Shown here in pieces: positions 23,421-37,879 of a stretch of 64,000 nucleotides of DNA. The position numbers and the translations under genes were made by a program. The first letter of the stretch is position 1; every line of letters starts with the position of its first letter. The stretch lies in UHGV virus genome UHGV-0134778. One strand, written 5' to 3'. The DNA is from a virus. The notes beneath the pieces are model-generated. The model was given only the letters and a program-made list of their open reading frames with translations. It was not told the origin of the DNA and made no database searches.

Positions 23421-23582
23421 ATCTGGTGCACGATTCCATACCTTAAGCAGTTAATCTCATTACAGAGCGTTTAAAGGCGGCTTACAAGCAACTCTCTATT
23501 TCGAGCGTAGCGAGAACGCACGTCCGTTTTGACCCAAATCACCATACGCTCGGATTTTAACCAAACCCTCGCGGCGTTTCTG

Positions 23583-23611
23583 TTGACACATTACCGCTCC
23601 AGTGATAATAT
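23583..23611 (+). promoter_or_regulatory. sigma70-like promoter
   Basis: TTGACA 23583-23588, 17-nt spacer, TAATAT 23606-23611. Confidence 0.5.
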
Positions 23612-23631
23612 CCACACATCATTTGGAGAAT

Positions 23632-23733
23632 ATGGGATACACAATGAAAACATTGTCAGAGGTTTTGGTGGTGATCCTGATGATCATTACGTCCATAGTG
23701 GCTGTTGCCGGAATACTCACGGGTGGAACATGA
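23632..23733 (+). CDS. small hydrophobic peptide (33 aa), below track cutoff
   Basis: GGAG RBS 4 nt upstream; MGYTMKTLSEVLVVILMIITSIVAVAGILTGGT; lies inside doubtful track ORF 23529..23942. Confidence 0.4.
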   Translation: MGYTMKTLSEVLVVILMIITSIVAVAGILTGGT

Positions 23734-24063
23734 TAAACACACATGCATCTGAAGAGACATCCAAAGGAGTGACTATATGTCCCTTGGCTGAGCCAGTGAA
23801 AGAGGAAAACTTAGATTCTGAAGATTCTCCATCTTCGCTCCAGGTAGATCCTGAGGCTGATGACCTAACGTGGGAAGACATCGTAGACATCTGGTTCTCC
23901 ATTATGCCTGAGCACGAAGAGTTCAGAGGTGGCAGACTATGAAGCACCGAGCCCACACAGGTTCCTCATGCTAAAGCATGGCCTGAAGAGGCAAACGTGC
24001 ATAATTCCTGTGCATTGGAACGTATAAAACCCTGTTCACACTCTCATTTCTAGAGGAGATTTC

Positions 24064-24279
24064 ATGAAGATAGAAATATTTGGTGGAGCTGACAACACTT
24101 GTGGCCTGATTTACCTCGAATTCGATGAATCGTACCTGCCAGAAGTGTTAAACATGGATTCTGTTGCTGAGGCTTTGGGAGTAAGTCCTAAAGATCTCTA
24201 CTCTGGTGCTGAGATTGATGGTTGGGAGGAGACCATGAACATCGATTTCAGTGAAGTAGGTGATGAACCGCTGGACTGA
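24064..24279 (+). CDS. hypothetical acidic protein (71 aa), last plus-strand gene of block
   Basis: AGAGGAGA RBS upstream. Confidence 0.5.
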   Translation: MKIEIFGGADNTCGLIYLEFDESYLPEVLNMDSVAEALGVSPKDLYSGAEIDGWEETMNIDFSEVGDEPLD

Positions 24280-25802
24280 CACACAATTAGTTGCCCGGCT
24301 AAAGTGCTGGAAGCACCCATAACATCTTCCAACTAAATTTCCTACCAACACAGTTACTTACCCACCACACATGACTGTTTGCTTGTTTAGTGAGCAGTCA
24401 TCCCTTGACATTCTTGCCTATCTTGATAAAATTAAGTTCTTCTCTTTTCTTTTACCGAGTAATTCGGGTTTTCTGTTCTCTTCGGTTTGAAGGGGTATGG
24501 AGATACACCTGAGTGAACAGGGTGAACAACCGAACCTTTAGCTATGGCATTAGCATGGCGAAGCGGACGGGTGACGAAAGAGGGGCCGGAGGACACCAGT
24601 CACTGCCATATAGTATATGGGTGATAACCTGAAGAGTCTGAATAAGTGTTTAAGTACCAGTCAGAGGAAAAGGTGAATGGTAGCCGAAGGGGGAGGGGGG
24701 TTTCTTATATCTTTAATTTGTATACTTTATATACACTTGTAAACCAATTCAATTAGGATCTGTTTACCACACAAAGTGGATGGAGACAAATATCACCTAT
24801 TAAACTTGAATTATTTATAGAAAATACCACAACACTACTTAAGTCTTTGATTTTACACACAAATCCTACAGATACTCACCCTCCATATTTAACATACTTG
24901 TAACATATCCCATACTCTACCTGTCTGATCAATTTACCCAACTACATCCCCATATTTTTCCTGTCTGTACTACCCCTGCCCCGCCGGGAGTCCCGTCATA
25001 TCTGGCTTCCCAGCAAATATCACACCCACAAATATCATTGCCTGAAGAGGGTTTCATCCCATAATACACACCTTGCCTGAAGAGCGATTCATACACCAAC
25101 TAAATTTTTTAATTGACCCCTCCCCGCCGCCGGAGAGGTTGGCTTTTCCCACACAGGCCTGAAGAGTCAGCCAGAAATATCTGAACAGGCCCAGTTATAC
25201 CACGATTTTGACATGACCGACAGGAGTGCTACCCTGTCAGGAGCCGGTAGCGACTGGAGTGCTGCCAGGCGGACGAAATGGGAATACTTCTCATTCTTAT
25301 AACAATTCTCAAATATCGAGGCAGTGAGGCAAATTAATAGGTGAGGCCGTTCACACAGTGGCACAACATTTGCAACCTATCTTGTGGGGTGAATGAGAAT
25401 ACCTATCATTGTGAGAATAGTTATCATTACGGGCAATTTAACATAATACCCATTATGCGCACCACTGGCGATACATACAGGGATTGATAACATGGGTTAC
25501 TGTTTACGCACATAACAATTATATTTCTTACTATTTGTGCGGGATATAGTTAGCAACCAATAGATTAGATATTGACCTGCGGACTTCTGACCGTCCAGAC
25601 GTCTAAACGCCCACACAACAAGGGTTATACATACATTCCTGAATGTAAACAGGGCCGCAAAAATGCTACCATACCAGTTTGTAAATTTTTCATGCAGCAC
25701 TTGACAAAGAGGAGAAAAACTTGTCTGACACTTTTGCCACTTTTGACACTTTTACCTTTGACACAATATGACACAATAACGGCTGTTACTATTCCATATC
25801 TC

Positions 25803-25858
25803 ACTGTTTACGCATAGACTGTTTACGCCTGAATAGTTTACGCCCAAACTGTTTACAC
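25803..25858 (+). repeat. four tandem iteron-like repeats ACTGTTTACGC
   Basis: ACTGTTTACGC at 25803 and 25818, AGTTTACGC at 25835, ACTGTTTACAC at 25848; further copies near 25508 and 26322. Confidence 0.7.
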
Positions 25859-25869
25859 AGAGATGATGA

Positions 25870-26163
25870 GCCATGCCATTCGTTTGCATGAAAACAATTA
25901 ACAAGATAACAATTAACAAGTTAATAATCTTTCGCTGGCTATGCCAGGTGACTAGGTCACCCCTTCGGGCGTTTATATGACATAATATAAAAGCAGGGCA
26001 ACTATTAGAAGATCTATAGTTGCCTTGCTTGTTATGTCATGATTAACTAAATACAAGGCAACTATGATCTGAGTAATAGATTGCAGAAAAACTATCACGG
26101 GGGTGATGGTTACTGCTTTTATATTATGTCGCGACTCCGTCGCGCCATGCCATTCGTTTGCAT
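25870..26163. repeat. composite element: 20-bp direct repeats flanking 18-bp inverted repeats and GGCAACTAT hairpins
   Basis: DR GCCATGCCATTCGTTTGCAT at 25870 and 26144; IR GACATAATATAAAAGCAG (25979-25996) vs CTGCTTTTATATTATGTC (26113-26130); GGCAACTAT/ATAGTTGCC four times; palindromes GGTGACTAGGTCACC and GCGACTCCGTCGC. Confidence 0.7.
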
Positions 26164-26780
26164 AGTTGCCTTATTGTTACAGGTAAAATAATTACATTAT
26201 TAATTATTTCTTATCTTTCTCTTAGTCATCTAATGATTCCAGTCAGTATAGTAATGTACAGTAAACATTAGACGACTAAAGATTTCTCTGTTTATGATAA
26301 CTCATCGTGATAATTTCGGGCTGTTTACGAAAAATGTTGACACCTGAGCTGATTTATGTTATGCAGTCTACACGAATAATTATTTTATGCAGGTATTGAC
26401 TATTCCGTTATTCTGTGGTTGGAATAAATACTTTGCAGGCTATAGAATGGCGTGCGTACGTGAATTCTGAGATCTGGCGGCTATAGTTATACTCGATTTT
26501 TCGCGTAGAACACGCTTTAGATGCTGTGTAAGTGTATGACTTATAAAGATTTTTAGTTGTTGACAAGATATTGGAGATGTGCATCAGGTTAAAATTTGTG
26601 CAATAGCGGCATTACGTGCACTTTTGGGAGAGAAAACGGGTAAAAATGGACTTGCTACCACACAATGAAAAATTATGCAATAGTTATTTTCCATGTATAT
26701 TTGTACAGTATGTGGGATTGATGGCTAGTCAATTATTCCACTTGCCAGGTAGGGCCGTTTATGGTAGGAGAAGAGCAGAC

Positions 26781-26805
26781 AAAAAGAAAGGGGCCTAAGC
26801 CCCTT
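26781..26805 (-). terminator. intrinsic terminator ending the minus-strand block
   Basis: On minus strand AAGGGGC-TTAG-GCCCCTT hairpin followed by TCTTTTT. Confidence 0.6.
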
Positions 26806-26823
26806 GATAATTCAGTTAAAAAA

Positions 26824-27243
26824 TTATAATGATTCGTATATTTCAAAAATCCGATTTGCCAGGTCGTTACGGTAGCTGAATTTTTCCTCACGTTTGATCA
26901 TAAGATCTTTATAGCCGTACTCTTTAAGCACTTCATTAACTTTATGGCGGCATACTTTCATATTATCCTGCGCGTCACCAATAAATCTGTTGCTATGGTG
27001 CATGGCTTTAATTTCTTCTTCCAGGACCAGGGCAACTATGCGGACCGGATCAAGCTGATAGGCGGTAACATCCATGCGGCATTGTAAACGGCTTTTTACG
27101 TCTGCCACCGGATATACTGCAACCTCTTCCCCGTCAACATTGACAATAATTAGTTTACCATCGATTTCGAATCCTTTCGCCGCCGGACCGTGACAAAAAG
27201 CGTTATCAAAGCTATATGCCGGATTATTAGATTTAATGTTCAT
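26824..27243 (-). CDS. hypothetical protein (139 aa)
   Basis: Co-oriented minus-strand ORF. Confidence 0.55.
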   Translation of the reverse strand: MNIKSNNPAYSFDNAFCHGPAAKGFEIDGKLIIVNVDGEEVAVYPVADVKSRLQCRMDVTAYQLDPVRIVALVLEEEIKAMHHSNRFIGDAQDNMKVCRHKVNEVLKEYGYKDLMIKREEKFSYRNDLANRIFEIYESL

Positions 27244-27387
27244 GGTGTTTTTACCTCTTAGTTAATTTTCTTACAACTTCCCTTCAAAAAAGAATATAGC
27301 AAAACTGCCGATCCCTGTCAACCAGGGATAGCGTAATTTTTATGTGATCAAGGGGCTTTATTGCCCCTGACCATGTAACTTGTTGTA

Positions 27388-27651
27388 TTATTTGTTGCTC
27401 ATCCAGTTTTCCCAAGCTGCCTGATAATCTGCCTCACTACGGCGGATCTCTTCTTGCTCTTCAAGGCGGATCTCTTCTTCCAGGTACCCCAAGATGTCAG
27501 CCTTTTTAGTCTGGCGTAGCATCCAGTCATCTTTTTTGCGAGTGAAGATCTTATAAGCTTTCTCGCAAACCTCTTTTTTGCTACCTTTCTGGACTTCAAG
27601 AACACGATAAGCCATATATTGAACTAATTTGAGCTGATCAAGACGTTTCAT
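27388..27651 (-). CDS. hypothetical protein (87 aa)
   Basis: AAAGAGG RBS; upstream GC hairpin. Confidence 0.55.
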   Translation of the reverse strand: MKRLDQLKLVQYMAYRVLEVQKGSKKEVCEKAYKIFTRKKDDWMLRQTKKADILGYLEEEIRLEEQEEIRRSEADYQAAWENWMSNK

Positions 27652-27711
27652 GATGTTTACCTCTTTGTGCGGTTCTGATTAGTGGGCCTTTTGGCCCGTG
27701 TCATTATCTTA

Positions 27712-36602: not shown

Positions 36603-37059
36603 GATTTTTATCCTCTCTGTTAATTAGTGTGGTGTTGTTCACCTTGCGAGGATAAGAATAACAGAACTATCCGAGCTGTCAACCGTTAGTTAGAATTATT
36701 TTTTGGGCAGAATTCTCCAGCCGCCGCCACTGCCAGGTTAACCATCATTTTTTCGTACTCTTCTTTATGTTCCAACGCTCCCGCCATAGCCTTTTCAACC
36801 AGGGTGATAGCCTCAGCGTCATTAATCGCTACATTTCCAGGGGATCAAATTACCTTTCATTTTTGTACCTCCTCTTCAATTGTTACCTGCCCTGTAGCAT
36901 AGGCCTACCAGGTTTGCAAGTTTTCACTCTCTCCTACCTGGTCAGTCAGGTCCTGCCAGGCTGGCCCCGCCAGGTTGCAGCGGTTGGTGCATTATGTTAG
37001 AAAAAATTTTTGAAGAAGTGTTGACAGCGGCCCCGCCAGGTGGCACAATATACCTATCG

Positions 37060-37340
37060 AAAGGACGGCAGGCACCGGTGACGGGGGAGACAACCACCGG
37101 GGATAGGCGCTGCATAAAATGAGAACGGTTATCATTATCATTTAAAAATTTATGCAAAAAATCCTTGCTTTCTTTGTCCTGTGTGATACTATAATAACAA
37201 GCCGGGGCAACAGGGGCCGGGAGACAATCACCGGGGGTGCCCGTTATTCTGCAAACGAGAATGATTATCATTCAAAATTCTAAATGAGAACTCCTCGCAT
37301 TTAATAAATTTAATTAGCATGCTAATTACCCTCCGTAACA
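37060..37340. repeat. two tandem copies of an approximately 135-bp repeat unit
   Basis: GGGAGACAACCACCGGGG...GAGAACGGTTATCATT (37084-) vs GGGAGACAATCACCGGGG...GAGAATGATTATCATT (37219-). Confidence 0.65.
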
Positions 37341-37399
37341 ATTTCCTATAAAACAATATCTCATAAAATATTCCCATATATAAATTTTAAAAATCCATT

Positions 37400-37569
37400 T
37401 CTGAAAACGAAAAATCGATTTCGTCCCCAAAAATTTTAGGTCGAGCGCCGGAACGATTTCCAGAAAATCTGATTCAGAAAACGAAAAACAGATCGAGTAC
37501 TAAGAAATTTATCGAGAAAAATTTTCAGAAAATCAGGTATTTGAAATGAAAAACAGATCGAGTACCGAG
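37400..37569. repeat. three iteron-like direct repeats GAAAACGAAAAAC(A)GATCGAGTAC
   Basis: Copies at about 37400, 37475 and 37543 in an A-rich tract. Confidence 0.6.
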
Positions 37570-37879
37570 AGAGATGTGCCGAAACTTTCTGATAGGTAAT
37601 GGACTTATTGTTATAAAAGGTCAGAGGTAAGCTGGGAAAGTTCTGGTAGAAGGGTGAGAGTATGTGCGGAAAATCTGGAATAGTGACTTAAAGTACGGTG
37701 CGAACGATAGAATGAGCAGCACAGCTTATCGTGCCTGTCTTGAAAAAATCCATTTTAGTTTTCGATCCATTTTCTGATTTTCTAAGAATTTTAAAATATC
37801 CGGCCAGGTGAAATATCAAAAGGAGGAAATCCATTTTAGAAATCCTCCTTATGTTTGATGTGCCAGGGATTTTCAAGTA

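Follow-up and report, generated by a model that had tools for sequence, protein, structure and literature searches.

The chromosome ends of phages T7 and T3 are among the closest described systems for the locus considered here, the gene-free interval at 24280-26823 between two convergent gene blocks in a 64,000-nt stretch of the virus genome UHGV-0134778 (the whole stretch is called the window). T7 and T3 carry a direct terminal repeat (DTR) of 160-230 bp, and in T7 the short-repeat arrays SRL and SRR directly flank it. The T7 promoters phiOR and phiOL, which serve no gene, are located near the ends, read toward or across the junction and have been linked to replication and concatemer processing, and the packaging signal pacB is located beside the repeat. 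The interval resembles these junctions in its short DTR (458 bp here), its flanking repeat arrays and a gene-less promoter near one end. It differs from T7 in belonging to a 137-kb myovirus with host-type sigma-70 promoters rather than promoters of a phage RNA polymerase, in a non-coding region about ten times larger and in a nested-hairpin element and a candidate RNA that have no T7 counterpart, and there is no sequence similarity to T7. Overall, the interval as a whole was assigned with fairly high confidence as the concatemer-junction and termini region of an rV5-like phage.

Replication origins offer a second comparison. Iteron origins include lambda ori, P1 oriR and plasmid origins, transcription-primed origins include ColE1 RNA II and T4 oriF and oriG, and the promoter-dependent origins of T7 are an example of RNA-primed or RNA-opened DNA. 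Like them, the interval has arrays of direct repeats, sites of dyad symmetry, an adjacent tract rich in AT and a promoter that serves no gene, and its candidate RNA ends in a G-run, whereas no initiator gene was recognised here and the number of iterons is not stable among close relatives. In phi29, a packaging RNA (pRNA) is encoded next to a genome end, and the ends are protein-primed without a DTR. The likeness to phi29 is a structured RNA gene in terminal non-coding DNA, which is a candidate here, but no sequence or Rfam similarity to the pRNA was found. Lastly, the injection stop signal (iss) of T5 lies inside a terminal repeat of about 10 kb and has eight DnaA boxes (10.1101/866236).

For the rV5-like phages, Fig. 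2 of the rV5 paper shows a grey "non-coding" box without open reading frames (ORFs) between genes 163 and 164 (PMC3606486). Korf et al. reported a 458-bp terminal redundancy in EdH4 and HdK5 (PMC6563267), and a 514-bp DTR was reported for KPP-1, a Klebsiella phage of the genus Mydovirus in the same subfamily, from a T7-type call by PhageTerm and doubled coverage (PMC9862379). The rV5 box and the EdH4/HdK5 repeat are the same locus as the window interval, and the KPP-1 repeat lies in the equivalent gap between convergent gene blocks. None of these papers linked the non-coding box to termini or dissected it. The locus and the 458-bp redundancy are therefore both already published; joining them and the dissection are new here. 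In the literature searched, the conserved blocks (Block A and Block B), the CCTGAAGAG boxes, the dispersed iterons and the cross-genus terminal motifs described below were not reported, and neither a Vequintavirus transcriptome nor functional work on the region was found. Published packaging statements disagree: rV5 was called permuted in 2013, EdH4 and HdK5 were given 458 bp in 2019, KPP-1 was called T7-type in 2023 and BpE1AUH headful in 2026.

Genome ends and the direct terminal repeat

The interval was matched over its full length by 122 phage records at 88-96% identity, essentially all of them Vequintavirus (rV5-like) E. coli myoviruses, and most of the GenBank relatives have no annotation at this place. 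A blastn search at "distant" sensitivity matched the non-coding DNA within Vequintavirus only. From the letters alone, the sequence-only reading had proposed a replication origin, packaging site, terminus region or cluster of non-coding RNAs and had held that none could be assigned. That caution was fair, and the comparison with related phage genomes that it had suggested resolved the termini, with DTR boundaries at 25268 (left genome end) and 25725 (right genome end).

The EdH4 record starts at window position 25268 and ends at 25725, and its first 459 bp are exactly its last 459 bp. The records of bov10K2, bov22_2, ECP2309 and YN3 also start at 25268, the ECP2303 record ends at 25725 and the Pr121LW record starts at 25725 in reverse orientation. 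In total, at least seven relatives' records from several laboratories start or end at one of the two positions, and in ECP2309 and YN3 the segment is present at both record ends. Most GenBank records of the genus were opened at arbitrary points.

No general DNA similarity was found between the window and KPP-1 in this region, yet the reported ends match in register. At the right end, the window sequence CTTGACAAAGAG-GAGAA corresponded to CTTGACAAGGAGAGAGAA in KPP-1 as an in-register 18-mer with a score that was reached by 1 of 1000 shuffles. At the left end, TGCCA/GGCGGAC corresponded to TGCTA/GACGGAC (slash, genome end), a 12-mer with 10 of 12 positions identical in the same register. The terminal-sequence matches to the phapecoctavirus Schickermooser were weak and limited to 6-mers. 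In addition, similarity to a divergent sister clade, represented by IMG/VR and metagenome contigs, starts at window position 25267. The DTR was placed at 25268-25725 because of the relatives' record ends, the exact terminal repeat, the register matches with KPP-1 and the start of sister-clade similarity, and the terminus or packaging-site option is supported by evidence from relatives, as record ends, exact repeat and published DTRs all map there. Nucleotide diversity (pi), computed across 16 genomes (the window and 15 relatives), was ordinary inside the DTR (0.062).

The absence of genes was examined with the same 16-genome alignment by counting variable sites per codon position. The longest ORF within 24280-26823 has 81 aa. 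Third-position bias was found in none of 13 local ORFs tested, and most ORFs were disrupted in the 15 aligned relatives, while two flanking genes gave 10/5/33 and 11/6/54 variable sites at the three codon positions as a positive comparison. A PHROG search with nine local ORFs gave zero matches, whereas the flanking genes fall into PHROG families. The ORFs within Block A are broken by a 5-nt indel between clades. A protein-coding reading was rejected because the ORFs are not intact in relatives and lack codon bias and PHROG matches. The sequence-only reading's claim that about 2.5 kb holds no real ORF is thus borne out, and no conserved protein-coding gene spans the region in the 15 aligned relatives. 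Its description of the rest of the window as packed with genes stood in part: this gap is real, but a second, smaller gene-free gap is present at about 36.6-37.7 kb.

Repeat arrays and motif boxes beside the terminal repeat

All tandem repeats scoring at least 50 within the window are located at 25394-25928. The tandem, direct and inverted repeats that had been noticed in the sequence were present as described or better, far beyond chance. Hypervariable, indel-filled segments touch both DTR boundaries, at 25181-25267 and 25732-25975. The left segment abuts the DTR boundary and has a 33-nt tandem duplication (CGACWGGAGTGCTRCC twice). On the right, a plus-strand short tandem array of TGACAC(TTT) begins with the first base past the DTR (25726-25778), where TGACACTTT is repeated at a 9-nt period from 25726. 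It is followed by a plus-strand iteron array of ACTGTTTACGC-type units at 25803-25859, in which CTGTTTACGC is repeated 3.6 times with a 15-nt period. The copy number and sequence of the TGACAC and CTGTTTACGC arrays differ between close relatives. Finally, a variable spacer at 25893-25975 (plus strand) holds 2.4 copies of AACAATTAACAAGAT (25893-25928) and a small GC-hairpin module (25935-25972).

The iteron motif CTGTT[TC]AC (CTGTTYAC) was found in 14 copies in the window compared to about 4 in shuffles, and 9 of the 14 are within 24000-26400. Dispersed copies start at 24032, 24513 (minus strand), 24760, 25500, 25645 (minus strand) and 26321.

GC-rich hairpin modules (such as CGCTGGCTATGCCAGGTGAC..GTCACCCCTTCGGGCG) were present or absent at differing spots depending on the phage (25935-25972, after 25230 and after 26031), and one was also found inside Block B of the sister-clade contig L030. 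These small modules behave like tiny elements that are mobile or prone to recombination. The GC islands and hairpins at 24965-25000, 25112-25150 and 25930-25975 folded no better than shuffles.

On the other side of the DTR, four plus-strand CCTGAAGAG boxes are located within 24628-25166 (starting at 24628, 25041, 25076 and 25158), and a fifth at 23982 is upstream of the last plus-strand gene. The motif occurs seven times in the window against 0.64 expected, with five of the seven clustered at the locus. The boxes are invariant (pi 0-0.03 against a background of 0.076). Left of the DTR on the plus strand, the window has five boxes, the sister clade five and KPP-1 three, and these often overlap -35-like TTGCCT or TTGACC. 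A general phage promoter mark was rejected as an explanation of CCTGAAGAG, as copies beyond the locus occur only inside genes, as Pro-Glu-Glu codons.

A G-poor, C-rich tract of the plus strand is located at 24713-25180 (G 12.6%, C 27.6%). The sequence-only reading had described a pyrimidine-skewed tract here; the skew exists but is mild (0.57 against a window mean of 0.51, standard deviation 0.05), and the real feature is the depletion of G.

Conserved blocks on either side of the repeat

Block A is an ultra-conserved non-coding block at 24380-24712 (plus strand) with a pi of 0.012 compared to 0.05-0.09 in the flanking genes, and it aligns to the sister clade over its whole length at 74%. A sigma-70-type promoter with an extended -10, TTGACA-16-TGaTAAAAT, is located at 24405-24432 on the plus strand with an 11/12 match; it is directed toward the DTR, and no gene follows it. 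A promoter (TTGCAA-17-TGcTATAAT) is kept at this place in the sister clade. The RNAalifold consensus of Block A has 48 pairs, 8 of them compensatory, and 98.6% of cells were paired compared to 50-56% in slid controls, where the covariation comes from two lineages only and the structure was derived from the same sequences as tested. The many G.U pairs, which reach from a 5' pyrimidine leader to a 3' G5AG6 run, fit the plus strand only. Block A ends in this run, followed by a T-rich tail, and a 3' end is suggested by a closing helix and then a U-rich tail in the window clade; the tail is weaker in the sister clade. A structured RNA of about 270 nt is therefore a candidate product, and on these features the balance leans slightly towards Block A being expressed as RNA.

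Scans of viral contigs and metagenomes for further Block A lineages returned two clades only, and the covariation statistics are weak for this reason. A search with an nhmmer profile of Block A recovered no further copy from the window, KPP-1 or Schickermooser, and Block A itself was without a match in 5,426 E. coli genomes. A covariance-model search, which the sequence-only reading had proposed, gave no Rfam 15 match at E ≤1 in 23500-27500 and none at gathering score over the whole window. No tRNA or tmRNA was found with ARAGORN. A hammerhead-like reading of CUGAAGAG was rejected for want of an Rfam match and of consistent helices. One contig of the sister clade carries a gene for an HNH homing endonuclease (PF13392, 256 aa; L009 8716-9486) between Block A and the CCTGAAGAG boxes; the insertion is just downstream of Block A, so that stretch tolerates insertions. 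The invariant core of Block A (CTGAGTGAACAGGGTGAACAACCGAA / GAGTGAACAGGGTGAACAA) holds two inverted iteron copies, therefore a role at the DNA level is also possible.

Block B (25977-26143) is the second ultra-conserved block, a nested inverted-repeat element with a pi of 0.017 against the same 0.05-0.09 of flanking genes. Its parts are an outer stem of 18 bp, a GC hairpin, a hairpin of the form CAC-GGGG-GTG and four 12-mers (CAAGGCAACTAT) whose orientation alternates. The outer stem is a perfect 18-nt inverted repeat (25979-25996 with 26113-26130) in which the 12-mers are nested. Compared to shuffles, the fold z-scores were -8.2 and -8.5 as RNA on the two strands and -9.2 as DNA. In the outer stem of the sister clade, GACATAATA is kept while the inner 8-9 bp are replaced by another perfectly complementary sequence, and the stem of the CAC-GGGG-GTG hairpin is changed by compensatory substitutions. 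Unrelated nested-hairpin elements of 150-220 nt were found in KPP-1 (z = -11.1) and Schickermooser (z = -6.9). Three genera thus have such an element at a distance of 200-310 bp from the corresponding DTR boundary, and z ranges from -6.9 to -11.1.

Block B is flanked by two plus-strand copies of an exact 20-nt direct repeat, GCCATGCCATTCGTTTGCAT, at 25870-25889 and 26144-26163, both invariant in relatives. The sister clade has a matched counterpart of its own, GCCATGTTATCGTTGCAT, with both copies replaced together. The most AT-rich 40-mer of the region (88% AT, 26185-26224), a candidate unwinding element, is located directly after Block B, and the sister clade is also AT-rich after its Block B.

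The two conserved blocks could be read as a gene cluster for non-coding RNAs, in which Block A would give a stable RNA and Block B a hairpin-rich RNA, both trans-acting and unrelated to the genome ends. The conserved promoter, the compensatory pairs and the G.U-rich helices of Block A that suit the plus strand only agree with this, as do the strong fold of Block B (z = -8.2), the preservation of its stems by compensatory changes and the conservation of both blocks beyond that of flanking genes. However, Block B folds equally well on both strands, as expected of a DNA palindrome, and has no conserved promoter, the sequence upstream of it (25890-25975) being variable or deleted in relatives. The Block A core consists of two inverted DNA iteron copies, neither block had an Rfam match at the thresholds given above, and expression data were not found in the literature searched. 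A cluster of this kind is unlikely. What stood of the non-coding RNA option is Block A as a single plausible RNA, given its conserved promoter and compensatory pairs.

As a second alternative, the locus could serve mainly as a replication origin. An initiator-binding and unwinding module would then consist of the iterons, the nested inverted repeats (with four 12-mers) and the 88% AT tract, the Block A RNA with its G5AG6 run would prime or open the DNA and the terminal repeat would be merely adjacent. The iteron array (3.6 units at a 15-nt period) with its dispersed copies adjoins the 88% AT 40-mer at 26185 just past Block B in a manner that fits iteron origins as far as architecture goes. In the sister clade, the place of the iteron and TGACAC arrays is taken by two to three perfect DnaA boxes (TTATCCACA) within 40 nt. 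The Block A promoter is conserved without a downstream gene, and the cumulative GC skew has its maximum in this region. However, no DnaA box with at most one mismatch was found at 24000-27000 in the window, and no recognisable initiator gene is located nearby, with the flanking proteins in PHROGs of unknown function and without Pfam domain. Relatives differ widely in the sequence and copy number of the arrays beside the DTR, which is unusual for essential origin iterons. Lastly, the skew switch coincides with the switch in transcription direction, to which the rV5 authors ascribed the GC/AT-skew shift at 104425-105475 of rV5 (PMC3606486). An origin as the main function is possible but doubtful, and an origin may also coexist with the termini assignment. 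The sister-clade DnaA boxes are located at 7845-7884 of contig L009 and also occur in L029, L030 and L034.

The same boxes bear on an improbable third alternative, that of a region for DNA entry or end anchoring comparable to the injection stop signal of T5, where a host protein would pause or anchor the incoming DNA. The likeness is superficial and consists of the DnaA-box cluster of the sister clade (three perfect boxes, as T5 has such boxes) and of a motif of host type that resembles a Fur box and occurs in the DTRs of three genera. In the window, this motif is TGAGAATAnTTATCATT, found three times on the plus strand within 25279-25428 (at 25279, 25394 and 25412), and TGAGAATAnTTATCATT-type motifs are enriched in the terminal regions of Schickermooser and KPP-1. 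Unlike in T5, the window has no DnaA boxes, and its elements flank a 458-bp repeat instead of being placed inside a 10-kb repeat with pre-early genes, so that the features which define the T5 signal are not found. To our knowledge, rV5-like phages have not been reported to inject their DNA in two steps. The TGAGAATAnTTATCATT copies are conserved no better than the rest of the DTR within Vequintavirus, and a Fur box is not claimed for them.

Finally, the interval might have no specific function, as a termination zone between convergent operons that gathered repeats and mobile hairpins in a circularly permuted genome. Convergent blocks are indeed present, and the minus-strand block is closed by an intrinsic-terminator-like hairpin at 26788-26805 (minus strand), which is annotated as a terminator in EdH4. 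The G-poor tract would suit Rho loading, insertions are tolerated (the HNH endonuclease gene in one relative and the mobile GC hairpins) and rV5 was described as circularly permuted. However, conservation in two blocks exceeds that of the flanking genes, and the motif boxes do not vary. Exact terminal repeats and the ends of records also fall in this region, and its architecture and terminal sequences are common to other genera. This alternative is highly improbable and is already contradicted by the conservation pattern.

Proposed end processing and neighbouring genes

Under the termini assignment, the virion DNA would be linear with a 458-bp direct repeat at both ends. The window would hold, in order, right-end unique sequence (24280-25267), one repeat (25268-25725) and left-end unique sequence (25726-26823), and would read like a replicating head-to-tail concatemer because the assembly was written through the genome ends. 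Its freedom from genes would reflect a cis-acting role in the control of the chromosome ends, and as such the region is a real but largely expected feature. The terminase would recognise conserved sequence at or near the boundaries; the candidate signals are the right-terminal CTTGACAAAGAGGAGAA...TTGTC, the left-terminal TGCCA/GGCGGAC and the same-strand CCTGAAGAG boxes on the right-end side. Recognition probably takes place at the conserved terminal sequences, at the CCTGAAGAG boxes or at both. By analogy with T7-type packaging, the terminase would cut at two fixed sites and the repeat would be duplicated by DNA synthesis.

From the conserved extended -10 promoter, the host RNA polymerase would transcribe Block A in the direction of the junction, and the resulting structured RNA of about 270 nt would be comparable in position to T7 phiOR. 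The iteron array, Block B and the AT-rich tract inside the left end may bind a sequence-specific protein, and this module may be a replication origin, which is the leading guess, or another end-handling site. The recurrence of the layout in Mydovirus and Phapecoctavirus without general DNA similarity suggests a shared end-processing logic.

A more far-reaching proposal is that Block A represents a new class of phage RNA, a host RNA polymerase transcript that starts from the right chromosome end, runs toward the terminal repeat and handles the ends by replication priming or opening or by guiding the terminase. In such an RNA-assisted scheme, the iteron sites in Block A would tie the RNA to the iteron array and the nested-hairpin element across the repeat. 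This was considered quite unlikely; if true, a large myovirus would process its chromosome ends with the help of an RNA.

Several points weigh against the termini assignment or parts of it. The evidence for the ends comes from relatives, while the window itself holds one repeat copy, as expected of a collapsed assembly. Some of the records perhaps were opened at 25268 by copying EdH4, thus not all of them are independent. The rV5 genome was called circularly permuted (PMC3606486, 2013), and a 2026 paper gave a PhageTerm headful call for the Vequintavirus BpE1AUH. For none of these phages has a binding site of the terminase been defined. The window sequence of Block A alone folded no better than shuffles (z = -1.2), and the covariation of Block B, like that of Block A, comes from two lineages with the structure taken from the same sequences. 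The missing DnaA box and initiator gene count here as well as against an origin.

The BASEL collection includes rV5-like phages, which are widely isolated and serve in cocktails for therapy and biocontrol. True ends at 25268 and 25725, inside the "non-coding" box, would give these genomes a rational zero point and mark about 2.5 kb that engineers must leave untouched in order to reboot or package a synthetic genome. Testable cis elements for T7-style packaging in a 137-kb myovirus are the two blocks A and B, the iterons, the CCTGAAGAG boxes and the terminal motifs.

The minus-strand gene adjoining the region (26824-27243) encodes a protein of 139 aa in phrog_12277, to which PHROG assigns no function. 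In Phapecoctavirus phages, members of another subfamily, its counterpart shares about 88% identity (L025 4001-4420) and is likewise the last gene before the terminal repeat. The gene was missing in 3 of the 15 aligned relatives, and the record-end loci of EdH4 are also without it. Further into the minus-strand gene block, a 297-nt insertion at window position 27655 was present in 4 of the 15 aligned relatives (L013, L014, L016 and L024).

The second gene-free gap (36620-37690) has two tandem units, each with a sigma-70-like promoter, a GC-rich segment of about 70 nt (GGGGAGACAAnCACCGGGG) and a Fur-box-like TGAGAAyGrTTATCATT, the latter at 37120 and 37256. This gap had no Rfam match and folded no better than shuffles. 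Among the database records, 19 GenBank entries of the MG0656xx series named "Campylobacter phage" (host Campylobacter jejuni) were more than 90% identical to this rV5-like genome across the region, and their names or hosts are probably wrong. The sole plasmid match was in PLSDB, where the iteron and Block B part was matched at 80% by CP057073.1 (5978-6476). This record is a 137.5-kb "non-mobilizable plasmid" from an E. coli assembly and is apparently the genome of an rV5-like phage that was registered as a plasmid.

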